From a virus (Duplodnaviria; Heunggongvirae; Uroviricota; Caudoviricetes), in the IMG/VR virus record IMGVR_UViG_3300018477_000015, positions 1 through 11,577 of that record: DNA of 11,577 nt, one strand, 5' to 3'. The position numbers and the translations under genes are program-made. Under the pieces are notes generated by a model. It worked only from the letters and a program-made list of their open reading frames with translations. It did no database searches and was not told the DNA's origin. Numbering within the stretch: the stretch's first letter is position 1; the number at the start of each line of letters is the position of its first letter. Shown here in pieces: positions 2,362-11,577 of this stretch.

Positions 2362-2409
2362 ATCTTTGTGTTGCTGAACTTATGCAAAATTTTTTTGCAC
2401 CATAAATCC

Positions 2410-2670
2410 AACAACACATTCAATAACACATTGCTGTATCACTATGAAAATAAATGTGTTTTTATTTGATTTCACACATATCACAATTAATACAGCGTTT
2501 AGTAATTAGTAAAGACATTTCAATGAATTACCGTTAAATCATTTTAAAATCAGTAAGTTGTATCGAGTTTGTATGCTTTACTGTCATTAACTTACTGTAT
2601 GTTGATCCAGTGTATTTAACCTTGATAAACTCAGTCCAGCAACACAAAACCGCAACACATTGCATTTTGT
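2410..2670. promoter_or_regulatory. AT-rich integrase-upstream region with repeated short motifs; candidate attP arm-site or int regulatory region
   Basis: AACACATT at 2413-2420, 2425-2432 and 2654-2661, with an inverted copy at 2453-2460. A 9-bp perfect inverted repeat CAGTAAGTT/AACTTACTG at 2551-2559 and 2589-2597. Repeated TTGTAT and TTACTGT motifs. Confidence 0.3.
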
Positions 2671-2732
2671 CCCGTAGAAAAGACTTGTATGTGTGTGCTT
2701 GTTTTCTGCGCCTACGCAGATAAGGATTGAGA

Positions 2733-4130
2733 ATGCCGCGCACTGTAACACATAATCCGGATAGCCCCAATAATGACGATGTTTTAGCCGCATCTGAAAA
2801 ATGGGACGCCTGTAAACCCCCCTATACCAGCGCACACATGAAAATCTGTGTTGCTGCCGCCAAAATCATCCTCGCTGCTTCCGGCGTGGCTCGCCGTTCC
2901 AAATACGAAAAAGAGAACTATCTCCGTATCGATTTCAGCAAAGCCGGTAAGGTTACATTTTACGCCGAGTTTCCAAAAAAGATGGGCCTCAAAGGTAAAA
3001 AGCTCGGCGAGTGGCCGGAGCTCGCTATTCAGCTGGCGCGCGAAAAAGCGCTAGGTATGGCTGACGGTGGCCTGCGTGCAGAGTCCGTACATGCAGCGCT
3101 GGAAATGTACCGGGATGACCTCAAAGCCAAAGTCGCCCGGCAGAAGCTGAGCCCGGACAGTTTCACAACCTACGGGGTGCGTATCGACCGGATTAAAGCA
3201 ACGTTCGGCGAGCGCGAGGTGTTCAGCGACGTAACATACAATCGGCTGGTGGAAGTGCTGGACGAGTGGATCGCTACTCGCTCGAACAATAACGCCCTGG
3301 AGTTGTTTGCCGAGCTCCGTCGGTTCTGGAAGTTCTGCGCACCTACTCTTTGCAACGGCCGCAATGTTGCCGCCAGTCTGCCAGATGATTATGTTTCCTC
3401 CCGCGTACAGAAACCTACCCCCACACGGCTTTTTACCGATATTGAATCAATCGCCCGACTCTGGCTCAATGTTGCTGCCTGCACCTCTGTACACCAGAAG
3501 AATGCTGTTCGCTTCATGATCATCACTGGTGTTCGTCCGATTAATGTCCATAACCTGCGCTGGGACTACGTTCACGAGGAGGCTGGTGAAATTGTTTATC
3601 CGGAAGGGGTTATCGGCATGCGAGGGGCTATGAAAACACAAAAGGCTTTCCGCCTGCCGATAACCCCTGAGATCCGGCGGATTATCGACGAGCAGAAAGC
3701 CTGGCGTGATTCAGTTCCTGAGTGCAACAGGGATTATGTATTTTTGCAGCCACGTGATCCAATGCAGCCATTTTCAAAACGATCACTAGATAAGCTGGTG
3801 AAAACATACAGCCCGGACGGGGCTGTAAAAGGAATAAAACATGATGGGACTGTTAAAGGGAAAGACGGTGCATTTAATACGATGTGCCGTAAATTCCTTA
3901 AGAGCAATGTTATTGCCTTGATGAAGGAAAGAGGCTATTCCCGCTCAGACCGAAGGGAAATCAGCCTCCTTTGCCTTCACCACTCCAGCAAGTCAGATGA
4001 CCCGATGGCAGAACATTACGACTTTTCTGATGAGATTTTACAGGAAGAGATTGCGTTGAAGCGCGAAGCTTTCGAGGCTCACGAGCGGAGCATACTTGCG
4101 CAGGTGGCATTGCTACGGCGGCGAGGTTAA
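2733..4130 (+). CDS. int: tyrosine-type site-specific integrase (P4-like, with N-terminal arm-binding-type domain)
   Basis: 465 aa from ATG 2733, with AAGGA 6 nt upstream; the track's 2727 start is a TTG. The N-terminus (YLRIDFSKAGKVTFYAEF...LGEWPELAIQLAREKA) fits the P4-int arm-binding pattern. The catalytic-domain landmarks are TGVRPINV (Arg), HDGTVKG and CLHHSS...AEHY (His/Tyr region). Confidence 0.85.
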   Translation: MPRTVTHNPDSPNNDDVLAASEKWDACKPPYTSAHMKICVAAAKIILAASGVARRSKYEKENYLRIDFSKAGKVTFYAEFPKKMGLKGKKLGEWPELAIQLAREKALGMADGGLRAESVHAALEMYRDDLKAKVARQKLSPDSFTTYGVRIDRIKATFGEREVFSDVTYNRLVEVLDEWIATRSNNNALELFAELRRFWKFCAPTLCNGRNVAASLPDDYVSSRVQKPTPTRLFTDIESIARLWLNVAACTSVHQKNAVRFMIITGVRPINVHNLRWDYVHEEAGEIVYPEGVIGMRGAMKTQKAFRLPITPEIRRIIDEQKAWRDSVPECNRDYVFLQPRDPMQPFSKRSLDKLVKTYSPDGAVKGIKHDGTVKGKDGAFNTMCRKFLKSNVIALMKERGYSRSDRREISLLCLHHSSKSDDPMAEHYDFSDEILQEEIALKREAFEAHERSILAQVALLRRRG

Positions 4131-4327
4131 TACTGGCTGCGACATTTTTGAATAAAAGCGTCGATATTTCGGCGCTCATAACGAACTACTTTTGCACTGA
4201 AACGAATTGGTGCCAGGATAGCCCGATGACGATGCTTAATATTCCACTCACATAGCGTTTTCTGTGTAATACCTAACTTTTGGCATACTTCATCCGGGGT
4301 GAGTAAATCGTCGGGTTTCTCGCTCAT
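4127..4327 (-). CDS. AlpA/excisionase-family small HTH DNA-binding protein (candidate recombination directionality factor)
   Basis: 66 aa. LLTPDEVCQKLGITQKTLCEWNIK...ILAPIRFSAKVVRYERRNIDAFI fits the AlpA/Xis winged-helix pattern. Its ATG overlaps the helicase stop (ATGA at 4324-4327) and its stop overlaps the int stop convergently. Confidence 0.65.
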   Translation of the reverse strand: MSEKPDDLLTPDEVCQKLGITQKTLCEWNIKHRHRAILAPIRFSAKVVRYERRNIDAFIQKCRSQY

Positions 4328-5718
4328 GCTATACCTCTCTTTTTCATGGCATCGAGCAGGATGTCCTGCACTGTTCGTTTTGAGTTGCGCCGCTCCATCA
4401 CCATTTCATCCATAGTGTCGGCAGCAATAATGTGGTGAATAAATACCGGACGATTGTGTCCGGCCTGTATCTGCCTGGTGGGGCCGATACGTTCAATAAT
4501 TTGCTGATATTGCTCCAGGTCCCACCAGTGTGAGAAAAATACCAGTATATTTCCGCCGTCCTGCATGTTCAGGCCGTGGCCCGCGCTGGCTGGGTGTGCA
4601 AAGAGAACAGGAATCTTTCCGGAATTCCAGTCGCGCAGTGTCTGTGGATCCTGGTCGAGGTGACGACCGCGAGGGAATGCTTTAAGCAAGCGTTCAAGAT
4701 CGTGTTTCCAGTGATAAGCAACCAGCACAGGTGCGCCAGCTGCTTCGGTCAGTATGCTGTCCAGCGCCTGTAGTTTGGTGTCATGCAGTTCTGACCAACT
4801 TCCGGTGTCATCTGTGTATACTGCGCCGCTGGCGATTTGCAGACACTTCAGTGTCTTTGCCGCGGCGTTCGGTGCTTCGATGCCTTCGCCATTCAGCTCG
4901 AGGAACATTTCCTTTTCCATTTCACGATACTGCTGACGGGCCTTCGGCGGCATATCCACGCGGATTACGTTATGGATGGGGTCTTTGATATCGAACCAGT
5001 CGGCCGCATCCAGCGAGAGGGTTACATCGGCTAACGCTCGCTGTATTTCACCCTGTGAGTGAGCAAAAGGCTCCAGTTTGGTCCAGCTCTGCCCCGGAAA
5101 CTGTATCGAGTTGAACCAGCGTGAGGTAAACGCGCCGTAAGTGCGCCCGAGACGTTGCCCCTGGTCCACAAACCACGATTGTCCCCACAAATCTACCAGG
5201 CCGTTCGGTGCTGGCGTACCGGTGAGATTTATCCAGCGCCGGACATACTTATGCGCCACTTTGCCCAGCGCCGCCGCGCGCTTACCACCACCGCGCAGCC
5301 GGAAGGATTTTAGCCGGGTGCTTTCATCTGGAATGACAGTACCGAACGGCCATCGTTCTCCCAATTCTTCAACCAGCCAGACAAGGTTATCGTAGTTGAT
5401 GGTGAACACGCTTGCGTTGCTGTTCGTCAGCGCCATAGAGCGCGCTTTGGCATTACCAATAATTGGCTGCACCTCGATATTGCGCAAATGTCCCCACTTC
5501 AGTGCTTCATCCGGCCATGTGCTGGCAGCCACGCGCAGCGGCGCGAGGACCAGTGCGGGGCATGTTTCTGCCCCTGCCATAAAGAGATCTTCCAGCGCAG
5601 TGAGCGTTGCCACGGTTTTACCCATTCCCATCCCCGCCCAGATGTTGCCGCGCAGGGTTTCGGTTTCGTGGTTGATAATGAGATCTTGGTAGGGGCGAGG
5701 TATATATTTTGGGGGCAT
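4324..5718 (-). CDS. SNF2-family ATP-dependent helicase (phage replication or recombination module)
   Basis: 464 aa with RPYQ, Walker A AGMGMGKT, DExx box IPDESTRL, motif III LTGTPAPN and a C-terminal GLNMQ...ERIGPTRQIQAG block resembling SNF2 motifs V/VI. AGGAG sits 9 nt upstream of ATG 5718. Confidence 0.85.
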   Translation of the reverse strand: MPPKYIPRPYQDLIINHETETLRGNIWAGMGMGKTVATLTALEDLFMAGAETCPALVLAPLRVAASTWPDEALKWGHLRNIEVQPIIGNAKARSMALTNSNASVFTINYDNLVWLVEELGERWPFGTVIPDESTRLKSFRLRGGGKRAAALGKVAHKYVRRWINLTGTPAPNGLVDLWGQSWFVDQGQRLGRTYGAFTSRWFNSIQFPGQSWTKLEPFAHSQGEIQRALADVTLSLDAADWFDIKDPIHNVIRVDMPPKARQQYREMEKEMFLELNGEGIEAPNAAAKTLKCLQIASGAVYTDDTGSWSELHDTKLQALDSILTEAAGAPVLVAYHWKHDLERLLKAFPRGRHLDQDPQTLRDWNSGKIPVLFAHPASAGHGLNMQDGGNILVFFSHWWDLEQYQQIIERIGPTRQIQAGHNRPVFIHHIIAADTMDEMVMERRNSKRTVQDILLDAMKKRGIA

Positions 5719-5732
5719 ATAATATGGCTCCT

Positions 5733-5768
5733 AAACAACAAAAGGCCAATTTAGGCCTTTTGTTGTTT
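5733..5768. other. perfect 15-bp inverted repeat with 6-nt loop (possible attenuator, weak terminator or processing hairpin)
   Basis: AAACAACAAAAGGCC-AATTTA-GGCCTTTTGTTGTTT. It lies between the stop of the 305-aa gene (5781) and the helicase RBS, and is U-rich on either strand. Confidence 0.5.
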
Positions 5769-5780
5769 TAAAAATGTTAT

Positions 5781-6698
5781 TTATAATAGTGCTGTTACTA
5801 TTGCATCTTTAAAAATATTTTCTTCTTCATTTATTAAAGGTGATGACAGATGAATAATTACTTCTTTTCCTGTCAATACTATTTGCTCGACTTGAAATCC
5901 TGCGTTGTGTAGTCTTTGGCGTAACTTTTCTAGTGCTGATTTTGATATACTAAATCCTTCACTCCTTATAGTATAACTGGCAACTCCATTTTTAATAATA
6001 TCTACAGAGTTGTCAATTTCCTGCTGCGAGTAATTTTTCGGTGAGTCGAAAAATCTGGATTTTGTCGTTGCTGTTGCCCTAAGAGATATCAATAATGATT
6101 TGATATCTTTAATCTCAGATGCCAGATACTCAGTTTCTGATACTTCTTTCTGGTCTAGTTGTGCAACTTTGAAAGTGCCAAAATGTTTGAGGAATGTTGT
6201 GTATTCAGGATCAGTTACTGACTTTAAATATGTTTCTTTTATCTTGCTCGCAAGTCTTTCTTTGAATAAATTGATTGATTGGTATCTTAAATCCGAAGGG
6301 TACTCTAAATGTTCAATTGATGAAATGTCAAAGCTATAAGGAGTGCGCTCGTCCTTAATAATTACGGTCGGTTTGTCAAATGCGAGACGCATTCCTAATT
6401 CAAACATTACATTAGCGTTTCGAGCACTTATATCGCAAACAACTATGGGGTTTTCATAAAGATTTTGAACAATTCGTTTTTGTATTACTGCAACATCATC
6501 ATCTGAACTTACCAAATTTGCCTTGAATCCGGCATCATTTGATGCTTCACAAATAATGTCATGAACATTTCTCCAATGTCCAGTGGGATAACCTTCTATG
6601 TCCGCAATTGGCATAATAATGCCGCATATATGAGGTGGCATATTTTTGTTGTCTTTTACATCATCTTGGTTTATTTCTTTCGTTTGTTGCTTAGCCAT
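5781..6698 (-). CDS. hypothetical protein with N-terminal TIR-like / nucleoside 2-deoxyribosyltransferase-like (Rossmannoid) domain and uncharacterised C-terminal domain; AT-rich insertion
   Basis: 305 aa. N-terminal region has ICGIIMPIA, then DDDVAVIQKRIVQNLYENPIVVCDISARNANVMFELGMRLAFDKPTVIIKDE and EYPSDLRY. The FE(L)G acidic motif after a buried strand is typical of TIR-like (PF10137-type) and NDT-like folds as I recall them. GC content is clearly lower than in the flanking helicase and VRR-NUC genes. Confidence 0.5.
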   Translation of the reverse strand: MAKQQTKEINQDDVKDNKNMPPHICGIIMPIADIEGYPTGHWRNVHDIICEASNDAGFKANLVSSDDDVAVIQKRIVQNLYENPIVVCDISARNANVMFELGMRLAFDKPTVIIKDERTPYSFDISSIEHLEYPSDLRYQSINLFKERLASKIKETYLKSVTDPEYTTFLKHFGTFKVAQLDQKEVSETEYLASEIKDIKSLLISLRATATTKSRFFDSPKNYSQQEIDNSVDIIKNGVASYTIRSEGFSISKSALEKLRQRLHNAGFQVEQIVLTGKEVIIHLSSPLINEEENIFKDAIVTALL

Positions 6699-6713
6699 AG
6701 CTTACACAGACTC

Positions 6714-6998
6714 CTATTGTAATTTTTTGCCTAATATACATGAAAGCTCCTTACTATCCAGTACTACCACGGTAAAGCCCAGTTTTCGCAGACGTTCATG
6801 CTCGCGCAACTGATCAGGTCGTGGTGGTTTGCCTGGTGCTTTGCATTCGACAAAGACGATGCGACCGCCGGGTAGCAGAACAATGCGATCTGGTACCGAG
6901 CGGAGACCGGGAGATACGAACTTAAAAGCAACCCCGCCAGCCTTTTTTACTTCAGCGACGAGGTGCTTTTCGATTAGGTTTTCACGTTCATAGGCCAT
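6714..6998 (-). CDS. VRR-NUC domain nuclease (PD-(D/E)xK family)
   Basis: 94 aa. GLRSVPDRIVLLPGGRIVFVECKAPGKPPRPDQ contains the D...E-x-K signature in the size and arrangement typical of VRR-NUC, a usual partner of phage SNF2 helicases. Confidence 0.8.
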   Translation of the reverse strand: MAYERENLIEKHLVAEVKKAGGVAFKFVSPGLRSVPDRIVLLPGGRIVFVECKAPGKPPRPDQLREHERLRKLGFTVVVLDSKELSCILGKKLQ

Positions 6999-7192
6999 TA
7001 GCTTTCGCCTTCCTGCTTTTTGCGTTTCTTCATGCAGATAGCGCAGTTCTCAGGATGGTCATGCCATTCGTCAATCCTGATACCTGTGAACATCCATTTT
7101 CCGCATAGTGATATGGCTTCCCCCGAATTAAAGAAATGTGCTTTTTTCGACAGGGCGGGGAACCCCCAACCTTTATTATCGATATTAGACAT
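6998..7192 (-). CDS. small putative zinc-binding protein (64 aa), translationally coupled to the VRR-NUC gene
   Basis: Strong SD (AAGGAGG, 6 nt before ATG 7192). Its stop overlaps the VRR-NUC start (TAATG at 6996-7000). Contains a C-x13-H-x-H-x4-C-x2-C motif (SLCGKW...EWHDHPENCAIC). Confidence 0.55.
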   Translation of the reverse strand: MSNIDNKGWGFPALSKKAHFFNSGEAISLCGKWMFTGIRIDEWHDHPENCAICMKKRKKQEGES

Positions 7193-7370
7193 CGTCCACC
7201 TCCTTACGCTTTTCGCGCATGTTCTGCATCAGACAAAAATCAAACCGACGTTCGCTTTGGCCCAGACCTGCATCGCCCGGTCGTACCCGCTGGACTGTTC
7301 AAGGCGCAAAGCCTCCCGCGCAGTCCGGTAATAAAGCGGACTGTCCCGGTATTTAAATGACATAGGGTTT

Positions 7371-7403
7371 TTATTCCCAAATAAAAAACCCCGCAATGCA
7401 GGG
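7371..7403 (-). terminator. rho-independent terminator downstream of the 253-aa gene (minus-strand sense)
   Basis: Minus-strand RNA forms CCCUGC-AUU-GCGGGG (6-bp stem with one G-U pair) followed by UUUUUUAUUU. It lies about 24 nt after the stop at 7428. Confidence 0.5.
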
Positions 7404-7427
7404 TTGTAATCAACAATAAGGGGGTAA

Positions 7428-8189
7428 TTACGAGGAAGCGTTAGCTATTTGAGCTTGTGTAAATTCGAAACCAGAATTTTGTAACCGTTGCACTAGACGA
7501 GGAACTGTTTCACGTACATGGTCGTTGAAATTCAGATACAAAATCCCGTTAGCATCAGAAGGCTGTTCTAGGTGCTGTTTCTGAAGGATTGCTACATTGC
7601 TGCGCCCTAAGGACGAAAGAAGCATACCCATCTCGAGTACAACGTTCTGTCTTGCGCGGGGTTGGATTTCTGCTTCACCGGCGCGCTTTGAGTATCCCAT
7701 ATCATCAGGTGTCAAAAGAACAATCCCGAAACGGGTAGCAGTTTGTCCTTGCCCAATTTCACGTTCAAGCTCTTCAATAATGGTGAGTCCAGTCCCTCCC
7801 GTATTCTGCAAAATGAAATGGTCTGGTAATCCAAGTTTATGAAGGATTAGCTCAAGTTGTTCCTTTGCAGTATGGTCATGGCCGTGAACAATGAATATCT
7901 TTTTGGGAAGCTCAGATGGCTGTTCTACGGCTAGTGGTGTTGCCGTGGGGGGCGTTCCTAAATGGGACATTATTGCAGTTTCAACATTGGGACGTTCTTG
8001 AGGGTTACCTTGAAACTGAATGGTCCGGGTGGTGTAAAGGTTAACAATTACGCCATTCGTTAAACGATAGCAGTCATAAGTCTCACGCTGTTCGTGGGAA
8101 AAATTGGTGAACCCACACTCCCTCAAAAAGTCAGGAAAAGATTCTCTCGGGTATGGATAGGTGATCGGCATTTCAGTTAGTTCCTGCAT
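7428..8189 (-). CDS. TIR-like domain protein (C-terminal TIR-like/NDT-like Rossmannoid domain, uncharacterised N-terminal domain of about 95 aa)
   Basis: 253 aa. C-terminal half has KIFIVHGHD, then FGIVLLTPDDMG...PRARQNVVLEMGMLLSSLGRSNVAILQK and QPSDANGILYLNF, the same motif order as the 305-aa protein and matching my recollection of the PF10137-type TIR-like family. AGGA about 10 nt upstream of ATG 8189. Followed by its own terminator. Confidence 0.55.
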   Translation of the reverse strand: MQELTEMPITYPYPRESFPDFLRECGFTNFSHEQRETYDCYRLTNGVIVNLYTTRTIQFQGNPQERPNVETAIMSHLGTPPTATPLAVEQPSELPKKIFIVHGHDHTAKEQLELILHKLGLPDHFILQNTGGTGLTIIEELEREIGQGQTATRFGIVLLTPDDMGYSKRAGEAEIQPRARQNVVLEMGMLLSSLGRSNVAILQKQHLEQPSDANGILYLNFNDHVRETVPRLVQRLQNSGFEFTQAQIANASS

Positions 8190-8253
8190 AAGTATTGTTC
8201 CTTTAATTTACTCGAATTCAGCATGTCGCCATAGCTCGATAAGGTGAGTTATA

Positions 8254-10350
8254 TCAATCTTTTTTGTAGTGGTACGCCTCAAAGCCGCCAGCGTTCAGCG
8301 GAATATCGGGTGCCCATTCGGGGTTAGTGGAGAGAAGCGCGGAAAGCGCTTTATCGTTGAAATCTTCTGTGTCTGGTGCTTCGGTGATCACCTCGTCGTG
8401 TACCGTTAGCACAATGCTGTAACCGGCACCCTCGATCAGCGGCATGTTTCTGGCCAGAACGTCGCGGGCGGCCGCCTGGGTGACGTTCTCCACCAGCTTT
8501 CCGCCGTAGGTTTTGAGTCGTTGCCATTTACGCGAATAAGAGTTAACACCCATGTAGGTGATATTCCCTTGTTCGATAACCGGAGACGGGTAGCATACAG
8601 CGCGTCCGGATGGTAGCTGTATGCGCAGCCACGCGCCATCACGTCGGATTTTAAGATAGCCGCAATACAATGTTTTTTGCGGTATGGCGATTGCTGTGCG
8701 GACAGTGCGCTCCAGCTCGTACCAGAAATCGCAGGTCGCCGGGTGCGCCCTGCGCCACAGGCGCTTGAGCGAGTCACATGCGATGAATACACGCTCGGAA
8801 AGGCCAAAGGTCGACTTACGTTTAACCGATTCGTCGTACCAGCTTTTCGCCTCGCGGATAACATCGCGGGGAATGTTTGGCAGTGCGGCGTTCGCCAGCT
8901 CGTCGAGATCGAGACCGTAAACCAGAGCAAAAGTGATGAAAGCCGATACACCACCTCCATAACCCAGACCGAGTTCCATGACTTTACCGATCTGACGCAT
9001 GTGTTTATCAACATCATCTGGTGCAATATCGAAAGCTTTTGCATACGCCAGTTTATATAAGTCCGGACCCGTTCCAGCGTCATACTCTCTGAATGCATTC
9101 AGTTTCCATTCTTCTCCCGCCAGCCATGCCAGCATACGGCCTTCAATGTTTGACAAGTCACTTACCACCAGTTTTTTGCCTGTTGGCGCGATAATGCAGC
9201 CACGTAACGCTGAACTGGTTAGTTCCATGATATTGTCAAACAGCAGGTCTGCACATCCGGCTTTCAGTGCTTCGATGCCTTCGTCTATTTGTTCCTGTTT
9301 TAGTGAAGGGCGGGGAAGGTTCTGGGGCTGGAATAGCCGTCCGGCCCAACGACCGGTACGTGACGCCCCGCAGAACTGTAGCGTACCGCGTAAGCGCCCG
9401 TCGTGGCTTACGCCTTTCATCAGTGCCTTGTATTTACTGGTGCTGGTAGTACTGGCTTGCAGGCGGATAGCCAGCAGTTCTTTCACGGCAGATGATAAAT
9501 CGGGGTCGGCCATACGACGTTCCAGGGTACTGCGTTGCATGTCTGGTAGCTCCACACCGTAGGATTCAACGATGTGCTTAATCAACGCGTCCCGTTGTGT
9601 GGCTGCCTGCACTTCGCCATCAGTCATTTCCTGTGTACGCTTTGCCAGGCGCTTTTGCTCCTGGTCTACCGCTTCGATCGCAGCGCGCGCGAGTTGCATG
9701 TCCATGCAGACGCCCCGGTCGTTGATCTGCTGATCACGATGCCAGAGCGCCAGCTCTGTCCCCTGATAATTCCACTTCGGCAGACGTTTATAGACTTCGC
9801 GCATTGCTTCGATATCCAGTCCGGCGTAAGCAACAAAGCGCCGCCATTCTTCCGGATGGGTTTTACTGGTGGCCCGACGCAGTTTGCTGTTTTTCGGATG
9901 TGGCTTACAGAACAGCTGGATCAGCGCTTTACCTTCTTTGTCCTTCGCTTTGTCTTGCGGGACGCCTAGTACTTCGCAGAGTTCCCCCAGAGACCCCGGG
10001 AGACCGTGCGCCAGCGCCTGCACCATCGTGTCGCGCCAACGTTCGACTGGCGGTGCCAGTCGCGGCATTGCATAACGCAGAACGGTGCGGTCGAAGTGAG
10101 AGTTATGGAAATAAAGCAGGGTTTCAGGGTCTGCGATTGCTTCGTATAAGCCGTGTGGAATACCACCACCGGCAGTGATATCCCACACGTTTACTGGCCC
10201 GTCGTTGATAGCCCATGCGAAAAGCATCACTTCAACGCCTTCGGCATACGCATGGGTACCGTTCGTAATAGGGATTTCGCAATAGGTTTCCAGGTCGCCC
10301 CAGAGAATACTTTGATGTTGTTTATTTGAGGGGACTATATTATTTTTCAT
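8254..10350 (-). CDS. family A DNA polymerase with N-terminal 3'-5' exonuclease domain (phage-type PolA)
   Basis: 698 aa. Exo motif LWGDLETY, polymerase motif [21 protein letters not shown], motif [17 protein letters not shown], motif C LTVHDEV. Confidence 0.9.
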
Positions 10351-10384
10351 ATGGGCAAACTAGCTAATAAAGTTGAGGAAAAAA

Positions 10385-10588
10385 ATGTCTGAATCTAAGT
10401 TCAAACCTGGAGACCGCGTACAACATCTTTCTGGTGGGCCTGTTCTTGTGGTTGTTAGCACAGGATATATTCCTGCAACAGCTTTTAATGGCGACTTCAT
10501 TCGCGTAACTTGTGAATTTTGGGATGAATCTAAAAAAGCTTTCGTAAAACAGGATTTTGTTGAAACTTCTCTTGAAGATTACGAATAA
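10385..10588 (+). CDS. DUF2158 (YodC-like) small protein
   Basis: About 67 aa from ATG 10385, with GAGGA 5 nt upstream; the track's 10373 start is a TTG. KPGDRVQHLSGGPVLVV...CEFWDESKKAFVKQDFVETSL fits the GD.V.L.SGGP...C.WFD...K..F pattern of the DUF2158 family. It lies opposite in orientation to the surrounding replication genes. Confidence 0.65.
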   Translation: MSESKFKPGDRVQHLSGGPVLVVVSTGYIPATAFNGDFIRVTCEFWDESKKAFVKQDFVETSLEDYE

Positions 10589-10604
10589 CTCATAACACAA
10601 TCCT

Positions 10605-10628
10605 CAAAGCGCCCCTAAGGGCGCTTTG
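10605..10628. terminator. bidirectional hairpin terminator between convergent genes
   Basis: Perfect 10-bp stem CAAAGCGCCC / GGGCGCTTTG with CTAA loop, followed by GCGTTT on the plus strand. It sits 17 nt after the DUF2158 stop and 4 nt after the DUF2815 stop. Confidence 0.55.
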
Positions 10629-10632
10629 GCGT

Positions 10633-11181
10633 TTAAATCAGTGCTTCAGCATCAGCACCTTCGCTGATATCGTCGAAATCGTCAGCGCTTGCCACTCCGC
10701 CGCCAGCGAATGCATCGCCGTCTCGCAGGAACTGGACTCCGCCGAGTGAGGCATTAATGCGTTTACCGAAATTATTGTCCTGTGCCCAGATATCGATAAC
10801 GGCGTTTACATAGCACCCTGCATAGGGACGTCCATCAGCCTGAATTAGTGGCGAACGATCGCGATCAAGAACAGCTGGGCGCGCTTTGTTAGCAGCATTC
10901 AGGAAGAAATTACCGGGGAAGCCTTCATACTCTGCTTTTTCATCACCATCATGCAGGCACAGATTGAGTTTTTTCTCCAGTTGGTTATAAATGGGCTCCC
11001 ACTTCTCTCCCCATTTTTCCTTCGCTACCTGCTTCATAGCTTTACGGATTTCTTCCAGTTGTGGGTGTTTGGGAGACATTAAAAATACTGCGGAGAAACG
11101 CGGATCGCCTTCGCCGTTTACAGTTTTAGCTTCAAACAGAGACGGGAAGGCCAGACGAACATTGTTCAGCTTCAGTTTCAT
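10633..11181 (-). CDS. DUF2815-family phage protein (ssDNA-binding-like), with acidic C-terminal tail
   Basis: 182 aa beginning MKLKLNNVRLAF, the N-terminal signature I associate with DUF2815 proteins found next to phage family A polymerases. AAGGAAA SD 8 nt upstream. C-terminus is DDFDDISEGADAEALI. Confidence 0.65.
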   Translation of the reverse strand: MKLKLNNVRLAFPSLFEAKTVNGEGDPRFSAVFLMSPKHPQLEEIRKAMKQVAKEKWGEKWEPIYNQLEKKLNLCLHDGDEKAEYEGFPGNFFLNAANKARPAVLDRDRSPLIQADGRPYAGCYVNAVIDIWAQDNNFGKRINASLGGVQFLRDGDAFAGGGVASADDFDDISEGADAEALI

Positions 11182-11196
11182 GGGTATTTCCTTAAA

Positions 11197-11577
11197 TCAG
11201 ATGAGGTCTGCGGTTAGCGTATCGTCGGATACGTCGTCGAAATCATTTACAGGGTTGATATTGAGTGCGGGGCGTGGGTCTGACTCGGGAACGACGGTTG
11301 GTTTACCATCAGCTCGTGTTATCAGTGCCTCGACTTTTGACCAACGGCGCGGACTGGCCTTTTTGATAAGTTTTTCGGCTTTTGTGGGACTAATAAGTTT
11401 AAAGTCGAATACTTCTTCAGTTTTGTACCTGAACTGGTCCTTCAGAAGTGCGCGAGCTGCCTCTTCATCACTCCAGGCCCGGTTACCTTGTTTTCCTGTT
11501 ACCAGTTTAAACCCCGGTACCGGATGTCCGGCATTGAGTTCATTGTGAACCCGGTCCCGTACTGCCTTTAGCCAGGA
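11197..11577 (-). CDS. phage replication-module protein, C-terminal 126-aa fragment (5' end outside window); possibly the DUF2800-type nuclease that usually precedes DUF2815
   Basis: Minus-strand frame is open from the window edge to TGA at 11197-11199 and ends ...NDFDDVSDDTLTADLI. The stop lies 15 nt upstream of the DUF2815 start. It is not in the ORF track because there is no Met in the window. The family assignment is a guess from gene order. Confidence 0.45.
   Translation of the reverse strand, partial: SWLKAVRDRVHNELNAGHPVPGFKLVTGKQGNRAWSDEEAARALLKDQFRYKTEEVFDFKLISPTKAEKLIKKASPRRWSKVEALITRADGKPTVVPESDPRPALNINPVNDFDDVSDDTLTADLI

Follow-up and report, generated by a model that had tools for sequence, protein, structure and literature searches.

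The question raised by this locus is what the repeat-rich, AT-rich stretch in front of a phage integrase gene represents. The stretch lies at positions 2410–2726 of the window, by which we mean the whole 11,577-nucleotide sequence analyzed, which appears to represent a temperate phage in its circular or virion form. Immediately to its right is a gene for a tyrosine integrase of 465 residues (int, 2733–4130, plus strand), transcribed away from it. A sequence-only reading had proposed that the stretch is a candidate attP or arm-site array, with an operator array as the alternative. The attP proposal is borne out: we are close to certain that the flagged stretch is the attP of a temperate Escherichia coli phage, since lysogen junctions place the crossover inside it, at 2471–2488. 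More broadly, window 2365–2752 very probably comprises this attP together with the int control region, serving site-specific, tyrosine-recombinase-mediated insertion at the 5′ end of the host ferredoxin gene yfhL. The element is of an ordinary kind; here, its core and its candidate integrase-binding repeats can be placed to the base.

The Crossover Core and the yfhL Target

A genome search found the window split inside the flagged region in 161–164 of 5426 complete E. coli genomes, and in none of the 5426 was that region uninterrupted. The attL match starts at window position 2471 and joins rightward phage sequence to yfhL, the attR match ends at 2508 and joins leftward phage sequence to yfhH, and the match coordinates place the two junctions ~42–44 kb apart on one chromosome. 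Alignment of four sequences (the window attP, one attL, one attR, and the empty K-12 attB) gave 18 bases identical between attP and the K-12 attB, TTCACACATATCACAATT, at 2471–2488. Directly to the right of this 18-bp core, attL carries phage bases and attR carries host bases, implying that strand exchange occurs within the 18 bp. The sequence-only reading had suggested comparing prophage ends with attB, and attL and attR from lysogens, together with the K-12 site, confirm the attP core. Its placement at 2471–2488 draws on the four-way alignment, on 164 lysogen junctions, and on the overlap with the att site of Serratia phage vB_SspS_OS31 (MT843276), for which a 23-bp att repeat, TCGCACATGTCGCAGTTGATGCA, has been published (Bujak et al., 2020; PMC7556043). 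The OS31 repeat corresponds to window 2472–2494, so that the span common to both is 2472–2488, and the use of OS31 with other attL/attR pairs narrowed the overlap region no further than 2472–2488 (17–18 bp). No clear dyad of inverted core-type sites was seen by eye within or around 2471–2488. The description of the region as AT rich also holds, with a GC content of 0.25–0.29 over 2400–2624.

The shared sequence is coding DNA of the host. Read on the minus strand, 2518–2471 encodes MSLLITKRCINCDMCE, a diverged version of YfhL codons 1–16 (K-12 YfhL begins MALLITKKCINCDMCE), an assignment made from translations and from lysogen annotation. The core falls inside the codons of the first cysteine motif of YfhL, the CxxCxxC iron-sulphur motif, which explains the conservation of the target across genera. 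In lysogens yfhL is annotated as full length (86 residues) with the phage-type N terminus; insertion, by supplying codons 1–16 from the phage, thus rebuilds a full-length gene. At the same time, integration swaps the yfhL start codon and all sequence upstream of it for phage DNA. Because the start codon, the translation signals, and the upstream region are all replaced, yfhL expression in the lysogen must depend on phage DNA; a consensus scan between the core and int returned nothing usable as a promoter for yfhL in lysogens. While the flagged region had been read correctly as attP, its duplicate of a host gene's 5′ end had been overlooked. The gene yfhL has been listed as a prophage site and counted as disrupted (PMC3603311), and it is the insertion site of Stx2b prophages (PMC12029490). 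The present analysis corrects the view of yfhL as simply disrupted, in that a 5′ end provided by the phage restores the reading frame.

No tRNA or tmRNA was detected in the window with ARAGORN and no Rfam family was matched, in agreement with the earlier remark that a tRNA-like 3′ fragment is absent. An att site targeting a tRNA gene is ruled out by these empty searches and by the identity of the shared sequence as yfhL coding DNA; a tRNA fragment is missing because the target is a protein-coding gene.

One relative carries an unusual arrangement at this target. In L064 (2580–2760), ~60 bp of P-arm-like sequence containing one TAACAC site lie between the yfhL codons and a second copy of the core, which is followed by a normal P′ arm and int; the arrangement looks like the scar of tandem or successive integrations.

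The YAACACA Repeats and the Integrase

The three direct copies and one inverted copy of AACACATT that had been reported are present exactly as claimed (2413–2420, 2425–2432, and 2654–2661 on the plus strand, 2453–2460 on the minus strand). They are over-represented: there are four in the window versus 0.58 expected, and four copies were reached in 0 of 200 shuffles and in 0 of 2000 composition-matched resamples of 2410–2726. To follow the repeats through related phages, we used 17 loci from other Enterobacterales with integrases 58–99% identical to that of the window, 80 IMG/VR contigs, 40 loci retrieved with a degenerate core pattern, which is unbiased as to the arms, and phage OS31. Motif offsets were taken from 7 independent P arms and 21 non-redundant P′ arms and were counted from a core anchor, the C of CACAT (window 2475). 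The motif spacing is kept at fixed offsets on both sets of arms, and the conserved unit proves to be the 7-mer YAACACA rather than the 8-mer, with three of the four AACACATT copies belonging to it. As an arm-site array, therefore, the earlier list is upheld for the direct copies, which sit on conserved offsets, and fails for the inverted copy at 2453–2460, which is not conserved. The list also missed a further inverted copy of the motif at 2367–2373, outside the flagged range.

On the P arm, this distal copy (2367–2373, minus strand; TGTGTTG on the plus strand) corresponds to an inverted YAACRC at −107/−108 in 7/7 independent arms. The CAACACA at 2412–2418 (plus strand), within the first AACACATT copy, is matched by YAACRC at −63 in six of the seven, the exception being L108, which has a second inverted copy at −85 instead. 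TAACACA follows 12 bp later at 2424–2430 (plus strand, the second AACACATT copy), and YAACRC occupies this offset (−51) in all seven arms. Outside the motif blocks the P-arm families have a mean pairwise ungapped identity of 0.38 (n = 7). The inverted AACACATT copy (2453–2460, minus strand) was rejected as an arm site and is probably not functional: it is absent from all other P-arm families and is changed to AATGTATT in two E. coli attR variants. Two further features of the P arm vary among E. coli relatives. The attR of E. coli 097H6 (L143) has three tandem 12-bp units (ATTCAATAACAC) in the region of window 2406–2430, where the window has two, suggesting that the number of candidate arm sites varies among close relatives; the G9 homopolymer at the P-arm edge (2355–2363) appears as G10, G7, or GGGGAG. 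An open reading frame of 142 residues (1991–2419) runs over the P arm, but its first 50 codons are probably spurious. Its start is doubted because the PHROG match begins at residue 55 and because the region before that carries the conserved non-coding motifs; in addition, E. coli variants have lost the ATG at 2269.

On the P′ arm, two CAACACA copies lie 13 bp apart on the plus strand, at 2640–2646 and at 2653–2659, the latter being the third direct AACACATT copy. YAACRC is found at +165 (+164 in two arms) in 21/21 non-redundant P′ arms and is among the most conserved of the non-coding columns, and it is found again at +178 (+177 in two) in 21/21. One more forward copy falls within int itself, in codons 5–7 (2746–2752, plus strand), where it may be a third P′ site or an autoregulatory site. 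A forward YAACRCA is present at +270 to +273 in 20 of the 21 P′ arms, and L132 has an inverted copy at +266. Codon 5 of int ends in A in 20/21 sequences though it encodes V, A, I, or T, and codon 6 is ACA in 19/21, next to a freely variable codon 4. The copy inside int thus appears to be constrained at the DNA level, on synonymous positions.

Taken together, the YAACACA copies at 2367–2373, 2412–2418, 2424–2430, 2640–2646, and 2653–2659, and probably that at 2746–2752, are good candidates for arm-type sites of the integrase (Int), as judged from their sequence and placement. We assign them to Int, in preference to an excisionase or a host factor, because they lie on both arms and travel together with the module.

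The protein itself is compatible with this assignment. Int matches Pfam Phage_integrase (4e-07, above the curated cut-off) and phrog_1 (1.5e-26), and the catalytic domain is the only one above the Pfam threshold. Arm-DNA-bind_3 (PF13356) scores 13.6–15.4 bits versus a cut-off of 27, over residues ~57–107, in 9/9 relatives. PF13356 is listed for one distant integrase homologue, and an arm DNA-binding domain is reported for OS31 Int (PMC7556043). In an AlphaFold2 model based on 37 homologues (pLDDT 86.7), two helices at the N terminus are followed by four strands (residues 54–94), a helix (99–112), and then core-binding and catalytic domains. The top Foldseek matches to this model in the PDB are full-length lambda Int structures, aligned over 391–407 columns and ranked ahead of truncated chains (75–356); in this whole-chain comparison the TM-score normalized to the query is 0.45, with 13–15% identity to lambda Int. 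Sequence searches of the PDB with Int and with a 9-member profile gave no matches, and only the fold comparison worked. Residues 54–96 are almost invariant in the family, which fits the invariance of the DNA motif. As modelled, these features support an integrase of the lambda-type, heterobivalent kind.

A candidate excisionase gene encoding 66 residues (4127–4327, minus strand) is the last gene of a leftward early operon. Its product matches HTH_17 (1.1e-05) and PHROG excisionase families and is 69% identical to the annotated OS31 excisionase. We therefore considered that YAACACA might instead mark sites for this HTH_17 protein or for another accessory factor, with Int acting mainly through core-type contacts. 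The idea gains something from the way the xis-like gene travels with the module, from the sub-threshold arm-domain match, and from the tandem direct repeats with a 12–13 bp period near the core, which resemble lambda Xis arrays; in lambda, the Xis sites are arrayed as tandem direct repeats near the core. Xis sites, however, usually occupy one arm only, and a both-arm layout is typical of arm-type Int sites. Here YAACACA is found in either orientation, on the P as well as the P′ arm and as far as 270 bp from the core, and the near-invariant residues 54–96 of Int coincide with a modelled β-sheet and helix. We accordingly consider the excisionase assignment improbable.

Lower still is the probability that a phage transcriptional regulator of int or of a leftward transcript uses the repeats as an operator array and that they have no role in recombination. 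The P′ copies do lie between the core and the int start, one of them inside int, and some regulatory effect is likely in any case. Yet no repressor gene adjoins the repeats, the motif and its exact spacing are unchanged in phages with unrelated immunity and replication regions, and the three copies beyond the core are 42–44 kb from int in lysogens, so that the operator alternative of the sequence-only reading is not sustained. Chance occurrence of the repeats in AT-rich intergenic DNA is an explanation that holds for the other motifs of the region (a 9-bp inverted repeat, TTGTAT, and TTACTGT, all chance-compatible as described below) but is refuted for the AACACA motif by the randomizations and by positions conserved to the base across diverged arms, which leaves it next to no probability.

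Under the preferred assignment of YAACACA to Int, the N-terminal domain of Int would bind the YAACACA arm sites and its catalytic domains the core, as in lambda, so that Int would bridge arm-type sites and core. IHF would bend the P′ arm at 2548–2560, and the Xis-like protein, supplied from the early operon, would direct excision. The int gene would be transcribed from its own promoter in the P′ arm, possibly repressed by LexA and autoregulated by Int, which the copy in codons 5–7 may allow; LexA on 2593–2612 would keep int off in the lysogen until SOS induction.

CAACACA is also encountered on the host side. In K-12 (L002) the host flank of attB, which is yfhH-yfhL intergenic DNA, has a copy at +60 to +66 relative to the core anchor; AACAACACAAA is found in the same flank in L115 and L118, and the hosts L103 and L107 are without it. 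The copy in the host flank may be due to chance or may be a host regulatory element.

Further P′-Arm Elements and the LexA Question

The P′ arm between the core and the tandem repeats contains an IHF-consensus site, AATCAGTAAGTTG, preceded by an A/T tract (2548–2560, plus strand). Of the 21 non-redundant P′ arms, 18 have the pattern WATCAnnnnnTTR precisely at +73, and from this conservation we consider it reasonably likely, on balance, that 2548–2560 is an IHF site that bends the P′ arm.

The sequence-only reading had drawn attention to a perfect 9-bp inverted repeat with a 29-bp spacer (CAGTAAGTT/AACTTACTG, 2551–2559 and 2589–2597, 29 nt between the arms), whose left arm lies inside this site. 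The repeat is present, but it does not stand as a functional unit. A 9-bp inverted repeat of this kind arises in 16% of composition-matched resamples, and it is perfect in the closest relatives only, with 2–6 of 9 positions complementary elsewhere and no compensatory changes; on these grounds a hairpin or operator was rejected. Its left arm consists of the variable center plus the TT of the IHF-like site, and the right arm shares bases with the left half of the palindrome considered below, so that the 9-bp repeat appears to be a by-product of two separate conserved elements. The reiterated TTGTAT and TTACTGT motifs, also proposed as sites, were dropped since their counts are at chance level (10 matches versus 6.6 expected, and 2 versus 1.1, respectively).

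The palindrome, TACTGTATGTTGATCCAGTG (2593–2612), resembles a LexA box and is proposed as the SOS operator of an int promoter; it contains the right arm of the 9-bp inverted repeat and one TTACTGT. It has the form CTGT-N8-CCAG, a match to CTGT-N8-MCAG, with CTG-N10-CAG, and TACTGTATGTTGATCCAGTG fits the E. coli SOS-box consensus taCTGtatatatataCAGta as quoted in PMC7556043. With a position weight matrix (PWM) made from 20 LexA boxes, the palindrome scores 18.2, close to the leave-one-out median of those boxes (19.4; minimum 7.5). Just one other site in the window scores high, at 16.4 (2270–2289), and the best unrelated site scores 4.3. Among relatives, 20 of 21 P′ arms have NTGT-N8-MCAG (window 2595–2610) at +120 (+121 in L132), and the best LexA-like 20-mer of the P′ arm is at +118/+119 in all 21. 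Only about half of the relatives have CTGT as the left half; the others have GTGT, TTGT, or ATGT, and for those phages the LexA reading is weakened.

Whether the palindrome is a LexA operator is, judged from its sequence, a little short of an even question. Its chief competitor, to which we attach a smaller though still considerable probability, is that the palindrome is the int promoter, with CAGTAT(A)AA as the −10 element, or a site for some other dimeric factor, the resemblance to an SOS box being coincidental. The pattern of conservation speaks for the competitor, as every relative retains the right half, CAGTRT, which continues into TATAAA in several, whereas only about half retain the critical C of the left CTG. 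Against coincidence stand the near-median PWM score compared with 4.3 for the best unrelated site, the constant offset of the best LexA-like 20-mer in all 21 relatives, and a second near-consensus box 320 bp away at 2272–2287. Readings of the palindrome and the tandem repeats as CRP, Fis, or lambda-CII-type sites were poor fits when compared by eye with consensus sequences.

It is conceivable, though unlikely as we weigh it, that host LexA is a built-in part of the attP/int module, acting at an operator at +118 to +137 from the crossover in the P′ arm. If this were so, integrase synthesis, and perhaps assembly of the attL intasome, would be gated by the SOS response independently of the repressor of each phage, Int would feed back on its own gene via arm-type sites in the leader and in codons 5–7, and, because the yfhL promoter and start are replaced by the module, the same elements could also bring the host ferredoxin gene under phage or SOS control in lysogens.

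The box at 2272–2287 (CTGTAATTATGTACAG, PWM 16.4) lies upstream of a small leftward gene (ORF 1991–2254/2269, phrog_17793) situated between the tail-fibre module and attP, and the box is invariant in the E. coli variants. In phage OS31, a dinI-like gene with a LexA box is found at the same position; L108 has a similar LexA box there.

Two further conserved blocks are present in the P′ arm. The first, TTGATAAAC (TTGAnAAAC; 2622–2630, plus strand, ~+147), was recognized from conserved columns in 22 P′ arms and could possibly be a −35-like element; a promoter scan found no usable consensus sigma-70 promoter between the core and int, 2622–2630 included. The second, ATGTGTGTGC at 2688–2697 (~+213; ATGTGTGAGC in relatives), is conserved at at least 90%, and its 8-mer TATGTGTG (2688–2695) is the reverse complement of CACACATA in the core (2473–2480).

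Module Mobility and Relation to Known Systems

The same int-xis-attP module is found in unrelated phage backbones. That of the window has an SNF2 helicase, PolA, and a tail-fibre invertase, and that of OS31, a Hendrixvirinae siphovirus, has a CI/Cro switch. The sequence abutting the P arm differs as well: in L061 an invertase lies directly against it, and in L108 a LexA box is found there, like the one beside the dinI-like gene of OS31. In the window, the region to the left of attP contains tail-fibre assembly genes, a Pin/Hin-type invertase (614–1204), and two small leftward ORFs. To the right, int is convergent with a long leftward early operon, which includes the HTH_17 Xis-like gene, the SNF2 helicase, a TIR-domain protein, a family-A DNA polymerase (PolA), and an Enc34-type SSB.

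The insertion site in yfhL, the OS31 att core, and the lambda-type mode of working were already known, and the present site is the E. coli counterpart of the OS31 att. The arm motif is new. The result is a base-level map of a module that is present in ~3% of complete E. coli genomes and distributed through Enterobacterales. With this map, prophage boundaries can be set correctly; it also predicts a minimal attP for integration vectors and offers testable Int, IHF, and LexA sites.

Lambda inserts at an intergenic site between gal and bio, and its attP has the arm sites P1, P2, and P′1-3, IHF sites, and a COC′ core. The attP described here resembles that of lambda in that the integrase gene adjoins it, a short core is common to attB, a repeated non-core motif is found on both arms, and an IHF-consensus site is located on the P′ arm; a small Xis-like gene is likewise found beside int, and the best structural matches of the integrase are to full-length lambda Int. 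It differs in several respects. The integrase, at 465 residues, has ~50 extra N-terminal residues forming two helices, and the P′ arm is a long one, extending over at least 190 bp, possibly 280 bp, and reaching into the coding sequence of int. YAACACA bears no relation to the lambda arm motif, and insertion is into a protein-coding gene, at its 5′ end. In addition, int is convergent with the early operon and apparently has its own promoter, possibly controlled by LexA.

The closest described system is OS31, whose integrase is 76.5% and excisionase 69% identical to those of the window, whose motif offsets are the same on both arms, and which inserts into the homologous 2×[4Fe-4S] ferredoxin gene. 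The remainder of the genome is dissimilar, OS31 being an HK97-like siphovirus with a CI/Cro switch. PMC7556043 defines only the direct repeat, and no description of the OS31 arm sites, IHF site, or pre-int palindrome was found in the available text.

With respect to the repair of the target gene, the module can be compared with phage 21 and e14 at icd, in that the phage carries a diverged duplicate of the displaced segment and the host reading frame survives. Phage 21 and e14 duplicate the 3′ end of icd; by contrast, it is the 5′ end that is replaced here, together with the start codon, translation signals, and upstream sequence. The SOS-box-like palindrome upstream of a tyrosine recombinase gene recalls integron intI, which is reportedly among the recombinase genes repressed by LexA. 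Unlike the situation in intI, the candidate box forms part of an attP arm, where its spacing to the core is constant, and about half of the relatives have a degenerate version of it.

A further group of sequences is joined to the same yfhL core. Nine loci, mostly IMG/VR contigs and most of them ~16 kb (L105, L106, L110, L111, L122, L127, L128, L130, and L142), have a shorter P′ arm without the AACACA tandem. Three of these (L105, L106, and L130) have a NTGTATATTTAACCAG box ahead of an ORF whose beginning resembles that of int (MARTLPQKQIIPND) but which, by frame reading, stops after ~30 codons. The short-arm contigs may be satellites or decayed elements at the same site.

Three deposited phage records (ON470579, ON470582, and ON470588) match window 4324–11577 at 99.5%, the match reaching one end of the record. 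That these matches start at 4324, without int, xis, and attP, suggests that the prophage boundaries were set too short. Within the early operon, the TIR-domain protein (7428–8189) matches the TIR domain of the CAP12/Pycsar effector (2.9e-31) and is possibly a defence or counter-defence gene. The invertase gene at 614–1204 is flanked (56–1283) by oppositely oriented tail-fibre assembly and gp53-like ORFs, and the gene with its flanks is likely to constitute an invertible host-range switch.
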